Shown piece by piece: positions 1,701 to 21,927 of a stretch of 29,805 nucleotides of DNA (position 1 is the first letter of the stretch; each line of letters begins with the position of its first letter). Both the position numbers and the translations under genes were made by a program. The notes under the pieces are model-generated. The model ran no database searches. It saw nothing but the letters and a program-made list of their open reading frames with translations, and was not told where the DNA came from. The DNA lies in IMG/VR virus record IMGVR_UViG_3300042988_002177, positions 1 through 29,805 of that record; one strand, 5' to 3'. Source of the stretch: a virus (taxonomy: Duplodnaviria > Caudoviricetes).

Positions 1701-1865
1701 CTAAAATACCGACATAGACAGCAAGTGAAGACAGTATTGCTTTTGAAAGTCCTGAAAAGTATTCAAGATCTTGGATCTTGGATCTTGGATCTTGGTCGTG
1801 GAACTTGCATATCTACTGTAGCAATTTCTCAGTCTACGTCTAATTAGTGGGATTGCTGGAATCAT
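1701..1865 (-). CDS. Arg/Ser-rich paralogue family member 7 (short or frameshifted, 54 aa)
   Basis: MIPAIPLIRRRLRNCYSRYASSTTKIQDPRSKILNTFQDFQKQYCLHLLSMSVF*. The ATG overlaps the TAA of 1865..2170 and the IPLIRRR motif is shared with the family. Confidence 0.65.
   Translation of the reverse strand: MIPAIPLIRRRLRNCYSRYASSTTKIQDPRSKILNTFQDFQKQYCLHLLSMSVF
1767..1794. repeat. Perfect 7-bp tandem repeat gatcttg x4 inside coding sequence
   Basis: gatcttg at 1767, 1774, 1781 and 1788. Confidence 0.9.
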
Positions 1866-2170
1866 TATGTATTACTCACCTTTGATTTAGTAAAAGAATG
1901 AAACCACCAATAATAACTAAAACGCGATGTCACACTGGACTTACTTCTACCCAATCTACTTAGTTTCATTTCATTTGAATTCATACTCCACCATCTACCA
2001 CTTCGACACCCACTTCTACTACTACTGCTGCGATTTGAGCTAAAATTAGAAATGACCTTACTTGTATTTCCGGGAGTTCCGCTTGAGACTGTGATACTGC
2101 TTCTATATCTACTATATGCAGCCCTTATTCTACGTCTAATTAGTGGAATTGTTGTCATTGTATCAGTCAT
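1865..2170 (-). CDS. Arg/Ser-rich paralogue family member 6
   Basis: TIPLIRRRIRAAYSRYRS...SRFSYYWWFHSFTKS; start may be the second Met (2158). Confidence 0.75.
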   Translation of the reverse strand: MTDTMTTIPLIRRRIRAAYSRYRSSITVSSGTPGNTSKVISNFSSNRSSSSRSGCRSGRWWSMNSNEMKLSRLGRSKSSVTSRFSYYWWFHSFTKSKVSNT

Positions 2171-2429
2171 GATTATATCTTGATGCAGTTATTGACGTCA
2201 CCCAGTAATGGATAAACCTGCTGCCCATACTTTTTGTTGTACTAACTGTCCAACCTAATTTAGTTTTACTTCTAGAAAAAAGGCGAAGGTGCCGATCTCC
2301 ATTTACTACCCTACTAGCAATAGCTCCTACAGTCAAGGCGCTTCTAACCCGGCTTGCAAGACCGCTATACGCATACCGACGACTCCTACTTCTGGCTCTA
2401 CGTCTAAGTAGTGGTAAAATAAAGTTCAT
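2163..2429 (-). CDS. Arg/Ser-rich paralogue family member 5
   Basis: MNFILPLLRRR...SRFIHYWVTSIT; ATGA overlap with the upstream gene. Confidence 0.75.
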   Translation of the reverse strand: MNFILPLLRRRARSRSRRYAYSGLASRVRSALTVGAIASRVVNGDRHLRLFSRSKTKLGWTVSTTKSMGSRFIHYWVTSITASRYNHD

Positions 2430-2740
2430 TTAGCTCTCGATTTAGTGCATGAATGTAGCCAATAAAACACATTAAACCGACTTGAGGAGAGGCTCCTGCT
2501 GCTGCCAATGCGACTATTTCCTATGCTACTTGTGGTACTCCACAGAGCCGTAGGCGTTCTATCACTACAGCTTGAAGAACTCATACAACCAGCCCTGGCT
2601 CCATTTATTGCAAGACTAACACAACCCTTAATGGTTAAATCCCAACTATCGATGCTTTCCCTGCTCTTCCCCCATTTTCTTGTATATTTCCTATAAACAC
2701 TTCTGCTTCTAGGTCTTGTAGTTGGTATATGGAAGTTCAT
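2426..2740 (-). CDS. Arg/Ser-rich paralogue family member 4
   Basis: MNFHIPTTRPR...SRFNVFYWLHSCTKS. Confidence 0.75.
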   Translation of the reverse strand: MNFHIPTTRPRSRSVYRKYTRKWGKSRESIDSWDLTIKGCVSLAINGARAGCMSSSSCSDRTPTALWSTTSSIGNSRIGSSRSLSSSRFNVFYWLHSCTKSRAK

Positions 2741-2746
2741 TTAAAC

Positions 2747-3010
2747 TCATTTATTTCGGTTTGTCTTGTTTATTGACCAAAACCATAATGAAAGCCCAAG
2801 TCTATTACCTGCCCTGCTTGCTAGATTTGTTTTTGGTGCAAAGCCACTGCAGCTGAGAAAACTGCTCCCACATCCAGCTATGGTCCATTTGCTGCTTCTG
2901 GTCCTACTTCGGTATAATCCGATTTTTGACCGAGGGCTGCTCCTCATAAATCTATTATATATTCCTCTATATCTACGTCTAATTATTGGAATATGTATAT
3001 GAAAGTTCAT
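2747..3010 (-). CDS. Arg/Ser-rich paralogue family member 3
   Basis: MNFHIHIPIIRRR...LWFWSINKT. Confidence 0.75.
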   Translation of the reverse strand: MNFHIHIPIIRRRYRGIYNRFMRSSPRSKIGLYRSRTRSSKWTIAGCGSSFLSCSGFAPKTNLASRAGNRLGLSLWFWSINKTNRNK

Positions 3011-3275
3011 TATAAGTCCTGTGTTTAGTTACTGAACAAACCCAATAGTAATATCTACTCTTGCTGGTCCAACTCTTGCTCCAAAGGGAGGAAACGCAAT
3101 TCGCTCTTACATTGCTCCATACGTTGGTTCTGGAGGTTAATCTGCTCTCAGTTCTGCTGGTTTTAATACTTCTAGCCTTAACAACTCCAGCTAAATCTCT
3201 GTATCTACTGAAAACTCGTTTCTTTCTGAACGGTCCTCTATTTCTACGCCTCATTAATGGAATATAGAAGTTCAT
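2979..3275 (-). CDS. Arg/Ser-rich paralogue family member 2
   Basis: MNFYIPLMRRR...SRYYYWVCSVTKH; TAATG overlap with the upstream gene. Confidence 0.75.
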   Translation of the reverse strand: MNFYIPLMRRRNRGPFRKKRVFSRYRDLAGVVKARSIKTSRTESRLTSRTNVWSNVRANCVSSLWSKSWTSKSRYYYWVCSVTKHRTYNELSYTYSNN

Positions 3276-3595
3276 TACTTAGACCCATAGGTTATGGAAT
3301 AAATCCATGTGTATGTTATTCCATATCGACAACTATCGCTACGACTAGTCCAATTACTTCTACTCCACGTCGTGCTGGTTATTGTTGTATCAGGTCGGGA
3401 GCTTCTGACTCTGCTGTGACAACTCCTCCAGTTCCAACTCCATGAGTAATTACCACCACCTCCACTGCCTCTAGTTATACTACTGTTCCTAAGTGCGTCT
3501 GGTCTCCTATTGCAGACGCTCTTACTGCGTCCATATCTTTCATATGTAGGCCTTAAAGTGCGTCTAATTAGTGGAATATGGATATGAAAGCTCAT
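3275..3595 (-). CDS. Arg/Ser-rich paralogue family member 1
   Basis: MSFHIHIPLIRRT...YTWIYSITY. Confidence 0.75.
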   Translation of the reverse strand: MSFHIHIPLIRRTLRPTYERYGRSKSVCNRRPDALRNSSITRGSGGGGNYSWSWNWRSCHSRVRSSRPDTTITSTTWSRSNWTSRSDSCRYGITYTWIYSITYGSK

Positions 3596-4365: not shown

Positions 4366-4593
4366 TTAAATAAATAGTTTATAATAAACCTTGGCATGCT
4401 TTTGGCATCTATGCACCCAATACCAGTCATCTCCACCATTGATTTCATCCACTACTTCACATGGTCCTTCACATGGTCCTTCTGGAGCATTGTCGTCATC
4501 TATGTATGGGCACTCTTCACTACAACAACACTTACATTGGCTTACACTACGGTCAATTTTACAATGACGACACACCGAATTAACTATCTTCAT
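4366..4593 (-). CDS. Small Cys-rich (probable Zn-binding) protein
   Basis: CRHC, CKCCC, GPCEG, HRCQKH motifs. Confidence 0.7.
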   Translation of the reverse strand: MKIVNSVCRHCKIDRSVSQCKCCCSEECPYIDDDNAPEGPCEGPCEVVDEINGGDDWYWVHRCQKHAKVYYKLFI

Positions 4594-5307: not shown

Positions 5308-5489
5308 CTCGCACTATACATCAGGCCTTTAATTATTACTAGCTCTTTGTTTGCCTGCATTCACTTCCGATACCGCTCTGCCCGCACTATACATCAGGCC
5401 TTTTAGCTGCTGCGAGCACAAGCTGGCAGGCTCGAATCAGGGCTAATGGCATCCCCGCACTATACATCAGGCCTTTTAGCTGCTGCGAG
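5308..5489 (-). CRISPR. Minimal CRISPR-like array: 3 repeats, 2 spacers
   Basis: Identical 36-bp repeats at 5454-5489 and 5381-5416 (- strand CTCGCAGCAGCTAAAAGGCCTGATGTATAGTGCGGG). Degenerate 35-bp copy at 5308-5342 (CTAGTAATAATTAAAGGCCTGATGTATAGTGCGAG). Unrelated spacers of 37 bp (5417-5453) and 38 bp (5343-5380). Repeat ends are complementary (CTCGCA/TGCGGG). Abuts a RuvC nuclease gene. Confidence 0.85.
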
Positions 5490-7068
5490 GGCCTATGTGT
5501 TTTGGTCTTGTAGTGGCTTGATATTCTTGATGTATTCTCTCATCTTGCGAGCGACCCCTAGTGACCCCTACTGTAGGCTTGCGCCCCAGCGGCTCTTCAA
5601 TAGTTAAGTACGCACGTTCCCGAGAGTTTTTGTCTGCGAGCGGGTCTAGGGGAGCGGTTACCACCGAGCCCCTCGCCTTACTGGCCGATTTCCCACTTGG
5701 ATACAACTCCGGACCTACCGCCGACAGGGTGGTGTGTGCACCCTTAAGCCACTCATTTCGAGCAGCCTGTAAGTCCAGTTTACCTTTACCTTCACCTTCT
5801 ACAACAAATCGCGCAAGATATGCGCTAAAAATATCTCTTTGGCAATTAACTCCGCAGTCACAAATATGACGTGCTTGTGGACCCATATTGGGGTTCTTTG
5901 CCTTACGACCGCATAAACACATTTGAGACAAAGCTGTGGTGCGTGTAGGAATTAATACCACATTGGTTAATTGCTTTAGACGGGCAATGAGATAACCAGG
6001 AGCAGTTGACTTAAGTCTCTTGTTCCAGTTAGAATTACGCCAAGACCTGAAATCAAGGTCTTCCGTCATTATAATACCGCGTGCGGCAATATCTTTGGCA
6101 AGTATATTTCTCCCATTCTTACGAGCCGTCGCCTCTTTACGGTGGAGTTTACGCAAAGCTTTTTTGGTAGCCTTGAGAGCCGCTGTATCTTGTTTTAGCT
6201 TATTCTTCTTATTAGCCTCAATTTGACGAGACATTTTGCGGCTAATTTTACGCAGTTTAACATCGAATTTGTTTTGTTGTACGGTGTCATGACGTAGAAC
6301 TAGACTGCCTGAAGTGGCATCGACAACAGCTACAGTAGATACACCAATATCTACTCCAACACTACCTGACTTAGGCTGTACTCGGGATAAAGTCTTCCCT
6401 ACACAGATAAGGCGGGCAGAAAAGGTGTCTCCATTGTAACACATCTCAATAGAAGAAATTCGGTGCTTAAGAGCATATTCAGCAAATTCATCGCCTTTTT
6501 CCCAATAAGGCTTAATTATAAGACCTGCTCCCCACTGAATACCTTCAGGAGTGAGCTTGATGTGTTGATTTCCGTTTATAGAAACCCATTCGCCTCTACG
6601 AAGACTTCGGAATCTCGGACGCTCCCCACCATATAACCACGCTCCCGCTGTCTCATAGGCTCTTTCGGCAATAGTATTAGCTGGCTGAGCACCTAGGTCT
6701 GGAGCTATGGCATTTCGAAGGTTCTTGTACTTCAATTCCTTGGTTACATCAAAAATATTTATTCCTTTAAATGGAAGACCCGGAATATTCTTAGAAAGAC
6801 TCTTAAGTTCTGCAGCAAGGTCTGTGGGCAATTTCTTGTTTAGACGACGGCGTTCAGTACAAAGCCACTGATATCTCTTATTGGCTTTGATATGTTCTAC
6901 CCGCTTAATTGCTTCACGAAGATTCACATTGTACCACTTAACTACTTGCACAAACCTCTTTCGGAGTTCGTGCTTCTGGGCTTCAGTAGGGCTCAAGGCA
7001 AGCCGAAACACAAACCGGCCATCTTCTTGTGTTTTTTCTGTTGTGTTCATTGCTTTCTTTTGTGTCAT
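5476..7068 (-). CDS. tnpB: TnpB/Cas12f-like RNA-guided RuvC nuclease (530 aa), CRISPR-associated
   Basis: N-terminal FRLALSPTEAQ...YN (OrfB-type start), PRFRS, RuvC-I VGVDIGV, basic bridge region, RuvC-II TEDLDF, Zn-finger SQMCLCG...ICDCG, RuvC-III RDIFSAYLA. All three acidic catalytic residues (D, E, D) are present. Confidence 0.9.
   Translation of the reverse strand: MTQKKAMNTTEKTQEDGRFVFRLALSPTEAQKHELRKRFVQVVKWYNVNLREAIKRVEHIKANKRYQWLCTERRRLNKKLPTDLAAELKSLSKNIPGLPFKGINIFDVTKELKYKNLRNAIAPDLGAQPANTIAERAYETAGAWLYGGERPRFRSLRRGEWVSINGNQHIKLTPEGIQWGAGLIIKPYWEKGDEFAEYALKHRISSIEMCYNGDTFSARLICVGKTLSRVQPKSGSVGVDIGVSTVAVVDATSGSLVLRHDTVQQNKFDVKLRKISRKMSRQIEANKKNKLKQDTAALKATKKALRKLHRKEATARKNGRNILAKDIAARGIIMTEDLDFRSWRNSNWNKRLKSTAPGYLIARLKQLTNVVLIPTRTTALSQMCLCGRKAKNPNMGPQARHICDCGVNCQRDIFSAYLARFVVEGEGKGKLDLQAARNEWLKGAHTTLSAVGPELYPSGKSASKARGSVVTAPLDPLADKNSRERAYLTIEEPLGRKPTVGVTRGRSQDERIHQEYQATTRPKHIGPRSS
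5490..5720 (-). ncRNA. Candidate tracrRNA/omegaRNA-like structured RNA overlapping the nuclease 3' end
   Basis: GC-rich region with a hairpin at 5648-5673 (aggggagcggt-tacc-accgagcccct), a CCTAC/GTAGG hairpin at ~5567-5577, and segments complementary to the repeat 3' half at 5515-5551. Boundaries are a guess. Confidence 0.5.
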
Positions 7069-19824: not shown

Positions 19825-20865
19825 ATGGCAGTTTTACCAGCAATATCAAGGTCTTGGTGCACCAGAGCTAATATTCCTATTCCCGACAACTCCTCTACTA
19901 GAAATGTCGGTAATAGCTTCTTGTGGAATCTAAAGGAATGCCTCCTTAATACCTCCGTAGGTGGTACTTTAACTGGTGTTCGTCATGCTAATAGTGTATG
20001 GACTGTAGTTAGGTCGTCCGATGGAGCTGCTGCCGGGGCTACTGAAGATGGTATTGACAGATGGGGCACTCCATACAACGCCTCTAAGTTTGTTCGAAAT
20101 ACAACTGGTAACGCCCACTCTTGGATTATTCTCCGTAATTCGTATATTGGCCATGACATGATTATTGCCTGCAATGCCAATAGCGACAAGGCTGGTCGAG
20201 TTGCATTTACCTTGTCTTCTACCCCATTTGGTGCCGGTTCGGTGACCGCGTCGCCTCCTATTACTAGTTCTCCTAGTTTTGCATATGGAATATCATCCGA
20301 TGCCGTTGGTAGCAGCATTTCCCTTTCAGAGGATGTAACATCCGGAGCTACTTTTTACTCTCACTTTATTGCTGATGATTTTGGGAATTTCATTTACTTA
20401 TACAGCAAAGTAGGTTCCGGAATCTTTAGCGGGATGGTATCTTTAATTCAATCGGTAAATGCTCATGTAAGTGATACATTTAATCGCTTTGCTTTTGGTG
20501 GAACGGCTGTGGTGTCAGGCAAAGGGACTCCAAGTTGCGCAAATGCTGCTCGTACAACTGCAGGTTGTACAAGTCGAGGGCCGGATAACAGCGCACCTAC
20601 CGGTGGAGCGACTTGTATATCTGCAGGAGGGACTTCACCATTAGCTGAAAATACCGGAAGGTCGGACTCTCGTAGTGGCGAAGTACGTTTTGTGCAAGTT
20701 CATGTCTTTTCAGATTCTCCACTTGCTTACAGAGGGGTGCTTCCTGATATATACGAAGTAATTGGAGGGGTGACTGGGACCTCATATCCAACTATAGCCA
20801 ATCAAACTTGGGTATCTGTCGGGAACTATCTTTTCCCATTCTTATCCACACAGCCCATATTATAG
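19825..20865 (+). CDS. Probable virion structural protein, paralogue A (346 aa)
   Basis: GGAGA RBS; S/T/G-rich; within the tail module; duplicate of the next gene. Confidence 0.75.
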   Translation: MAVLPAISRSWCTRANIPIPDNSSTRNVGNSFLWNLKECLLNTSVGGTLTGVRHANSVWTVVRSSDGAAAGATEDGIDRWGTPYNASKFVRNTTGNAHSWIILRNSYIGHDMIIACNANSDKAGRVAFTLSSTPFGAGSVTASPPITSSPSFAYGISSDAVGSSISLSEDVTSGATFYSHFIADDFGNFIYLYSKVGSGIFSGMVSLIQSVNAHVSDTFNRFAFGGTAVVSGKGTPSCANAARTTAGCTSRGPDNSAPTGGATCISAGGTSPLAENTGRSDSRSGEVRFVQVHVFSDSPLAYRGVLPDIYEVIGGVTGTSYPTIANQTWVSVGNYLFPFLSTQPIL

Positions 20866-20886
20866 AGTATATTTCGGAGAATAAAC

Positions 20887-21927
20887 ATGGCAGTTTTACC
20901 CGCAATTTCAAGAAGTTGGTGCACAAGGGCCAATATCCCTATTCCAAACAATTCTTCTACTAGAAATGTCGGCAATAGTTTCTTGTGGAATCTAAAGGAA
21001 TGTCTCCTTAACACTCTTGGCGGCGGAACTTTAACTGGTGTTCGTCATGCTAATAGTGTATGGACTGTAGTTAGGTCTTGTGACGGAGTTGCCTACGGAG
21101 CTACTGAAGATGGCGTTGACCGAATCGGAACTCCATATAATTCAACCAAGTTTGTTCGAAATTCAACTAGCAGTGCTCATTCTTGGATTATTCTCCGTAA
21201 TTCGTATATTGGCCATGACATGCTTATCTCTTGTAATGCCAACTCTGATACCACAAGCCGAGTTGCGTTTACTCCCACGTCGTCCCCGTTTGGTACAGGC
21301 TCCGTGACAGCCGACCCCCCAACTACTTCGTTCTCGTTTCAATTTGGAAGCAATGCTGACTCGACAACTACCGCTACTATAAACGTCGCGGATGTAACAT
21401 CCGGAGCTACTTTTTACTCTCACTTTATTGCTGATGATTTTGGAAATTTCATTTACTTATGGAGTAAGGTGGGTTCCGGAATCTTTAGTGGAATGGTATC
21501 TTTAATCCAATCGGTAGGTGCCCATCCAAGTGACACGTTTAATCGCTTTGCTTTTGGTGGAACAGCTACATCGACGAGCACCTCCCTAGGTACGCCATAT
21601 GTTTCAAGTGCCCATGGGCCTTCTGGCTGTACAAGTAGAGCGCCAGACGGTGGCGCAAACAGTGGAGGCGTCACAGCCTTATGTGCTGGAAGTGCTACTG
21701 CATTGTCAGAAAACAACTGGAAAGGAGATAGTCTTACTAATGAGGTGCGTTTTGTGCAAGCTCACGTTTTTTCAAACAGCCCACTTGCTTATAGAGGGGT
21801 GCTTCCTGATATATACGAAGTAATTGGAGGAGGGGTAGGGGTTTCGTACCCAAATGTAGCTAGTCAAACTTGGATATCTGCCGGGAACTATCTTCTCCCC
21901 TTCTTGTCCACACAGCCCCTATTATAA
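20887..21927 (+). CDS. Probable virion structural protein, paralogue B (346 aa)
   Basis: Same ggagaataaacatggcagttttacc start context and same length as paralogue A; long identical peptide blocks. Confidence 0.75.
   Translation: MAVLPAISRSWCTRANIPIPNNSSTRNVGNSFLWNLKECLLNTLGGGTLTGVRHANSVWTVVRSCDGVAYGATEDGVDRIGTPYNSTKFVRNSTSSAHSWIILRNSYIGHDMLISCNANSDTTSRVAFTPTSSPFGTGSVTADPPTTSFSFQFGSNADSTTTATINVADVTSGATFYSHFIADDFGNFIYLWSKVGSGIFSGMVSLIQSVGAHPSDTFNRFAFGGTATSTSTSLGTPYVSSAHGPSGCTSRAPDGGANSGGVTALCAGSATALSENNWKGDSLTNEVRFVQAHVFSNSPLAYRGVLPDIYEVIGGGVGVSYPNVASQTWISAGNYLLPFLSTQPLL

Follow-up and report, generated by a model that had tools for sequence, protein, structure and literature searches.

A phage-borne TnpB-derived nuclease gene whose 3′ coding end likely contains the tracrRNA of a compact CRISPR system

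Cas12n nucleases recognize an A-rich (AAN) PAM and cleave double-stranded DNA as monomers, and TranC systems, LaTranC (PDB 9JFO/9JFQ) among them, were reportedly described by Jin et al. in 2025 as transposon-CRISPR intermediates. Cas12n (type V-N, V-U4/C2c9; AcCas12n and RdCas12n, PDB 9J09) is a TnpB-like nuclease of 400–700 aa (PMC12216341), with the hallmark of a disordered tail and a tracrRNA that overlaps the ORF (PMC12216341; PMC11641405; bioRxiv 10.64898/2026.03.27.714800); RdCas12n uses a tracrRNA of 170 nt, with a stem-1 pseudoknot that involves scaffold positions −4 to −2 (PMC12216341). In TranC, as presented in PMC13565253 and PMC13639567, a TnpB-like effector lies beside a short array and the omegaRNA/reRNA has been split into tracrRNA and crRNA, with several independent origins. 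For the TranC clades studied there, bioRxiv 10.64898/2026.03.27.714800 reports no tail that is unstructured and bears a tracrRNA, and it describes the Cas12f tracrRNA as intergenic and an unstructured tail as absent from Cas12f; a further 40 V-U branches are listed in PMC10691335. Both the architecture and the split-RNA concept discussed below are already published. No description of the lineage itself was found in the open-licence literature searched, although unseen supplements may list the clade, and none of the contig names was found in the one PNAS supplement text against which they were tried.

The DNA analysed here is a stretch of 29,805 nucleotides (the window) from a large tailed phage, with baseplate wedge and virion genes at 13.6–29.8 kb; the IMG/VR record that matches it is 50.8 kb long and 31% complete. 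On comparative sequence evidence, we consider it likely that the phage carries, within the window, a miniature type V CRISPR system derived from TnpB, in which a tracrRNA within codons 448–519 of the nuclease gene pairs with the crRNAs of a three-repeat array via AUACAUCA and a pseudoknot. The gene and the array are laid out as follows.

5476–7068, minus strand: TnpB-derived RuvC nuclease gene, 530 aa (profile match, alignment, structure prediction)
5454–5489, minus strand: CRISPR repeat 1, 36 nt, overlapping the stop codon
5417–5453, minus strand: spacer 1, 37 nt, target not found
5381–5416, minus strand: CRISPR repeat 2, identical to repeat 1
5344–5380, minus strand: spacer 2, 37 nt, target not found
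5308–5343, minus strand: terminal repeat 3, with a decayed 5′ third and a retained 3′ part (the predicted pairing portion)

The nuclease ORF (7068–5476, minus strand) runs into the array, its stop codon being positions 12–14 of repeat 1. The protein matched NF040570 in a profile search at E 2e-12, under the curated cut-off, and the best Foldseek matches of its model were ISFba1 and ISDra2 TnpB. The RuvC triad (D240, E336, D412) and the four zinc-finger cysteines (CCCC) are intact, and are invariant in 4/4 aligned clade members. In the AlphaFold2 model, built on an alignment of four sequences only (mean pLDDT 62.5), residues 452–530 have pLDDT < 50, which agrees, as a prediction from a shallow alignment, with the earlier impression that the last ~80 codons encode an unstructured stretch; the C-terminal tail after residue 452 is predicted to be disordered. 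The protein extends for 118 aa after the last catalytic Asp; two clade members, P0007 and P0009, end 30–32 residues past that residue, consistent with a dispensable tail. Contigs from three DNA runs (2 samples) matched the locus; they differ from it by a single substitution, at 6458, and carry no variant in the tail.

Elsewhere in the window, no transposase was seen on inspection of the ORF list, a promoter scan stayed at shuffle level (5 versus 4.3 in shuffles), and an Rfam scan gave 0 matches at gathering score. Six tandem ORFs of 87–106 aa at 1865–3595 (minus strand), rich in Arg and Ser, share a repeated DNA block; five start with M(N/S)F(H/Y/I), all carry an IP/LP..RR motif near the N-terminus, and a Pfam search with them gave no match below E 0.08. 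A 9-nt tandem repeat of about 8 units occupies 1571–1642, and two tandem 346-aa paralogues with DNA blocks 72–90% identical lie at 19825–21927 (plus strand).

Among 1.84 billion representatives, the closest relatives of the nuclease were P0005 and P0006 (45–46% over the matched stretches), followed by P0007 (37%) and by many others at about 30%. P0007 and P0009 group in the same clade (SH-aLRT 100) in a quick tree, which was used for grouping alone because it has long branches and includes neither an outgroup nor Cas12n rows. A metagenome scan yielded the locus of P0154, a P0006 cluster member with ~42% identity to the nuclease (locus L004), together with a 5′ fragment of P0005 (truncated locus L005). 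L004 has the same layout as the window: a six-repeat array, homologous 36-nt repeats, and a stop codon at positions 12–14 of repeat 1. A histone-H1-like 438-aa ORF rich in Lys and Ala (L004:1735–3051) lies directly upstream of its nuclease gene, and ParB-like and HNH-like genes adjoin. Within the clade, full DNA loci were available for the window and L004 only, so the covariation reported below rests on one comparison. Viral contig searches for more clade DNA gave this phage only, and word-index protein searches gave no additional relatives; genome-contig searches gave nothing beyond a 23-residue match in L249, which was set aside as chance. A two-repeat consensus pattern occurred in 32 viral loci and at least 121 genome loci, and by tblastn of the listed loci only this phage's own record encodes a relative.

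The comparison with L004 bears first on the tail. Amino-acid identity falls from 193/422 in the body to 25/79 in the tail, while fourfold-degenerate third positions are identical at 10/16 sites in the tail versus 28/100 in the body, and the DNA alignment of the two tails scores 51, against 21.6 ± 3.3 in shuffles (0/1,000 as high). The reading frame of the second CGCTCGCA motif differs between the two genes. The P0005 tail, assessed by back-encoding its peptide, can encode three motifs with spacings of 86 and 87 nt (88 and 87 in L004), the first of them in another frame, and such a three-motif fit arose in 1/3,000 shuffled peptides. By these alignments, the nuclease tail is kept as nucleotides, or RNA, across a frame change. 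RNAalifold on the two tails alone gave no repeat pairing, because MAFFT had misregistered them.

The three 36-nt repeats, with a period of 73 nt, follow directly after the nuclease ORF. Searching the spacers of the window and L004 among 50,697 phage records gave no significant match, and no TAM; spacer 1 matches L251 exactly over 18 nt, but the match breaks off there (21/37 over the whole spacer) and was treated as chance. Neither self-targets at up to 3 mismatches nor Cas1 were found in the 50.8-kb record (31% complete).

The RNA features predicted in the tail are these.

5512–5727, minus strand: predicted tracrRNA of ~210 nt, omegaRNA-derived, wholly inside codons 448–519
5625–5727, minus strand: 5′ domain homologous to IS-type omegaRNA (covariance model CM R1), with P1a (5724–5719/5638–5633) and P1b (5697–5692/5644–5639) enclosing hairpin 5673–5648
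5710–5713, minus strand: putative pseudoknot strand UCCG, whose predicted partner is the last four bases of the repeat
5537–5626, minus strand: 3′ domain, a long irregular hairpin closed by 5626–5621/5542–5537 that contains CUCGCA and hairpin 5592–5567 (pair probabilities, covariation with L004)
5528–5535, minus strand: anti-repeat AUACAUCA, pairing with repeat positions 21–28 and starting 1 nt past the outer helix, as in L004
5515–5524, minus strand: second partial anti-repeat (alternative register), repeat positions 17–26
5490–5498, minus strand: third partial anti-repeat, abutting repeat 1, with predicted cis pairing to repeat 1; not seen in L004

The original prediction placed a tracr-like RNA in the C-terminal coding sequence, which the comparison makes likely, with a 5′ edge slightly upstream (~5727, codon 448) of the 5720 it had given. 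The minus-strand letters of 5551–5515 are as it quoted them, and AUACAUCA (5535–5528), its proposed pairing strand, meets repeat positions 21–28 in 8/8 Watson-Crick pairs. At those positions the repeats of the window and L004 share 1/8 bases; cognate anti-repeat and repeat nevertheless pair at 8/8 (window) and 6/8 (L004), versus 2/8 and 1/8 when swapped, so that across these homologues AUACAUCA tracks the change in the repeat, in identical register. The outer helix behaves similarly, its sequences differing between the window (5626–5621/5542–5537) and L004 (4584–4590/4670–4676) and its pairs forming at 6/7 and 7/7 for cognate strands versus 4/7 and 3/7 for swapped ones, and in both loci pairing with repeat position 28 begins one base past this helix. 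The anti-repeat registers were found by inspection before testing, so the joint chance of their covariation, 3,010/300,000 random anchor pairs (P about 0.01) and 14/4,000 shuffles, is post hoc. L004 adds 9 contiguous pairs to repeat positions 10–18 (p 0.90), a region where the window keeps just three pairs and which window repeat 3 has lost. Covariation with L004, the omegaRNA model match described below, nucleotide conservation and the disordered tail together make it likely that a tracrRNA of ~210 nt, derived from omegaRNA, begins near 5727 and has AUACAUCA as its anti-repeat.

Within the window alone, the pairing is at chance level. The 40-nt segment 5555–5516 binds the repeat at −14.8 kcal/mol, a value equalled by 36% of 5,910 background windows, which makes duplex energy uninformative as a genome-wide detector; the duplex by itself has −10.7 kcal/mol, a weak value that 30% of background 22-mers attain (3.3% of background for L004), and P versus shuffles is 0.14. 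An 8-nt perfect match occurred in the 231-nt region in 5.1% of 5,000 dinucleotide shuffles and the 8+6 match combination in 6/1,500, and folding was unremarkable both for the originally noted region (z −1.2) and for the tracr regions of the two loci, which fold no better than shuffles (z −0.32 and −0.78). The shuffle control that had been proposed for the pairing therefore does not settle the question; support comes instead from the homologues. These energies and folding scores, with the lack of a 3′-domain model match and of spacer targets, speak for a reading in which the tail is either ordinary coding sequence or the remnant of an omegaRNA in decay, matching the repeat by chance, and the nuclease is crRNA-only or non-functional. 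We regard this as very improbable, given the nucleotide conservation over the synonymous background with its frame change, the co-varying helices, the weak structure of the repeats (−7.8 and −3.7 kcal/mol) and the catalytic triad, intact in 4/4 aligned clade members.

A functional tracrRNA could also engage the crRNA differently, by discontinuous pairing through CUCGCA (repeat positions 31–36) and AUACAUCA (21–28) with no upstream pseudoknot, as in the original prediction. CUCGCA (5551–5546) is able to pair 6/6 with the repeat end in the window, where repeat 3 changes a wobble to a Watson-Crick pair; the 8+6 pattern was seen, as given above, in few shuffles, and the central 3 pairs are also available in L004. 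The proposed CUCGCA:UGCGGG helix is nevertheless not supported by L004, where the motif is invariant while the repeat ends in UACGAC, so that 4/6 positions pair. Folding predicts that CUCGCA is paired inside the 3′ hairpin of the tracrRNA in both loci (p ≥ 0.94), its helix with the repeat stays below p 0.15 in cofold, and a position-matched upstream partner of the repeat end co-varies. We hold discontinuous pairing of this kind to be improbable and reject CUCGCA as the main repeat partner, although its 3-pair core may still form. GAGC (5593–5590) and GGCGAG (5677–5672), candidate partners of a second CUCGCA, were dropped because neither co-varies. The core idea of the original prediction is quite probably right as judged from sequence, and one of its two helices is probably wrong.

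The ancestry of the proposed tracrRNA was examined with omegaRNAs of the wider protein family. Eighty-nine wider-family loci and the two clade loci gave 79 with a RuvC-III motif and sufficient downstream DNA, of which 61 had a right-end-like hairpin; 47 of these lay within the length limits, and removal of near-duplicates reduced them to 22; leaving out L181, L182 and L188 (large insertions) gave 19 IS-type omegaRNAs, in which 31/43 pairs show two-sided change. CM R1, the 5′ domain of these 19, was trained without the window or L004, and its top match in the window is 5727–5625 (16.6 bits, E 0.061 over 61 kb, next match 10.3 bits), a borderline match on rough E-values; its top match in L004 is 4476–4587 (20.5 bits, E 0.0068). 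Further supporting this relationship, P1b reads AGUGGG/CCCGCU in the window, AGCGAC/GACGCU in L004 and ACCUGC/GCGGGU in the IS consensus, so that its sequence differs in all three groups while pairing is kept (6/6 and 5/6); by folding energy, however, both loci favour different partners for P1b and for the pseudoknot strand. The enclosed hairpin 5673–5648, already noted originally, folds at −14.2 kcal/mol with a pair probability of 0.93, and the second hairpin noted with it also exists, though its true span is 5592–5567 and the earlier ~5567–5577 covers the 3′ arm alone. A 3′-domain model (CM R2) and a sequence HMM of the omegaRNA alignment (nhmmer) gave no match at the tail in either the window or L004, so the homology shown with omegaRNA is confined to the 5′ half. 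By this comparison the original proposal of an ancestral omegaRNA split within the coding sequence is supported for the 5′ domain, and the idea of such a split is already in print for TranC. By eye, the 3′ half of the L004 repeat looks like the 3′ arm of the hairpin at the IS right end, which suggests that the split fell in the loop of that hairpin.

The omegaRNA comparison also points to a partner for the repeat end. In 17/19 IS RNAs, UG(G/A) stands just after the 5′ strand of P1a and is able to pair with the element end. At the same offset L004 has GUCG, the sole such 4-mer in 219 nt, which pairs with its CGAC repeat end; in the window UCCG lies three bases further on (one codon inserted) and pairs with CGGG, being one of six such 4-mers. 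The stem-1 pseudoknot of RdCas12n is a pairing of this type. The joint chance is 269/100,000 for a strand first picked by inspection. The L004 GUCG has a local partner (p 0.88–0.99), and window repeat 3 breaks one pseudoknot pair. On these sequence comparisons, the repeat end is more likely to lie in a pseudoknot with 5713–5710 than in a helix with CUCGCA.

Downstream of AUACAUCA, the alternative register of the original prediction, AUAUCA-A-GCC (5524–5515), is present, and cofolding of the window RNAs prefers it (0.61 versus 0.36). Together with the leader copy at 5498–5490, the minus strand of 5535–5490 carries three tandem partial anti-repeat copies, an arrangement not seen in L004; the two extra copies score above 990/1,000 shuffles against repeat positions 17–32, with P 0.035 against the whole repeat. 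An uncut omegaRNA-like RNA comprising tail, leader, repeat 1 and spacer 1 might then be the working guide in cis, the downstream repeats mostly storing old guides, with a minor role for pairing in trans. Tail and repeat 1 do lie on one strand 25 nt apart, the leader copy pairs with repeat 1 (p 0.69–0.87) in a hairpin like the IS right end, and in L004 repeat 1 is reached in cis by the anti-repeat (p 0.9). However, L004 has no leader copy, and repeats 1–2 of the window and 1–4 of L004 are identical and regularly spaced, with the terminal repeats of both loci retaining the pairing half, as expected if all repeats are used; we think a guide acting mainly in cis unlikely.

Returning to a tracrRNA that acts in trans on all repeats, the scaffold likeness of the tail, which covers the final ~250 bases of the gene, and its predicted repeat pairing make a compact CRISPR system likely, and a working scheme can be drawn by analogy. 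RNA transcribed across the gene and the array, or initiated at an internal site, would be cut near 5727 and near 5512. The resulting tracrRNA (5727–5512) would correspond to the ancestral omegaRNA minus its 3′ end, with the repeat:anti-repeat duplex in place of the IS right-end hairpin and the last 3–4 bases of the repeat forming the stem-1 pseudoknot with 5713–5710, as the IS end does. It would pair with crRNAs through repeat positions 21–28, and a monomeric TnpB-like core would cleave the guided double-stranded DNA, cutting TAM-flanked sequences that match the spacers, such as those of rival phages or mobile elements. New spacers would come from host Cas1-Cas2, and the ~80-residue tail, a by-product of read-through, would be dispensable. 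What the scheme says on processing, targets, TAM and spacer acquisition is inferred from TnpB, Cas12n and TranC.

Several viral relatives bear on how such systems may arise. L160 (2821–3517), a phage member of the wider TnpB family, has an unrelated 36-nt repeat that ends like the IS right end. The omegaRNA models match it clearly, and in the quick tree it groups with IS-type members (SH-aLRT 99); an anti-repeat inside its ORF (3019–3048) reaches −33 kcal/mol, which was equalled in 0/600 background windows and is the best of 122 tried. This parallel suggests that the omegaRNA split at least twice in the family, with L160 a likely second, independent case from its sequence. L168 (2355–2741), a long-branch viral relative, has a three-repeat array and a candidate anti-repeat (2527–2556) downstream of the stop codon. 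In L161 (3138–3229) and L165 (3074–3233), whose proteins group together in the quick tree, a viral omegaRNA is followed by 2–3 palindromic repeats of ~29 nt, which we take to resemble type I-E repeats, and the right-end hairpin has decayed. It is conceivable, if rather doubtful, that in phages the right-end hairpin was on several occasions the point where one IS605-type TnpB family split its omegaRNA (in this clade and separately in L160), leaving the tracrRNA in the coding sequence each time, and that the window locus is caught mid-split: its tandem partial anti-repeats would let repeat 1 fold back in cis, giving the newest spacer a natural single guide, while the trans tracrRNA would serve older spacers.

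If the proposed system is real, it would be an additional independent phage-borne transition from TnpB to Cas12 in which the ancestral omegaRNA is still recognizable, so that living IS relatives could serve to test the RNA-splitting model one helix at a time. The known Cas12n layout would then occur in a different protein lineage, and a tracrRNA in a disordered tail would be a convergent layout, not diagnostic of Cas12n. For guide design, 5727–5512 joined to the 3′ part of the repeat would be the starting point, with a ~450-aa core as a compact nuclease.

Cas12f, the comparison drawn originally, resembles the window locus in its small TnpB-derived effector, long tracrRNA and discontinuous crRNA pairing, but here the ORF runs into repeat 1 with no intergenic space and the profile matches are weak; Cas12n and TranC are closer precedents. 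The IS605-type TnpBs (QRDLxSAFLA family; Bacillota, Cyanobacteriota and others, with ISDra2 as the characterised model) belong to the same protein family at 25–33% identity, and share an RNA that overlaps the ORF end and the stem-1 domain matched by CM R1. The window differs from them in lacking the right-end hairpin ending in TCAG (CM R2 no match), with an array in its place, a 3′ end supplied by the 36-nt repeat and a 3′ domain diverged beyond detection by the covariance model.

Cas12n shares with the window locus a TnpB-like nuclease, a disordered tail and a tracrRNA whose anti-repeat overlaps the ORF, here on computational grounds. By sequence, the PADLOC Cas12u4 profile covers residues 226–361 only, at the 34 bits also given by Cas12f and Cas12u2; phmmer of the nuclease against 9J09 gave no match at E ≤ 1, and the clade profile matched RdCas12n 9J09 at E 1e-7, below TnpB 8IAZ. 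RdCas12n is no closer to the window protein than ISFba1 or ISDra2 TnpB, and its Foldseek rank (39) was not used because that model has no nuclease lobe. The tail after the last Asp measures 118 aa in the window protein versus 55 in RdCas12n, and the window system is phage-borne, with another IS605-type TnpB family, not Cas12n, as its nearest relatives. On these sequence comparisons, the window protein is Cas12n-like in layout and not Cas12n by sequence. With TranC, of which LaTranC is the top PDB match of the wider family profile, the window shares a TnpB-like effector with an intact RuvC domain, an adjoining CRISPR array and a tracrRNA homologous to the ancestral omegaRNA/reRNA, in the 5′ domain only (E 0.061 and 0.0068), whereas its tracrRNA lies inside the ORF. 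By these features, rather than by placement in a numbered clade, the window system fits the TranC definition.
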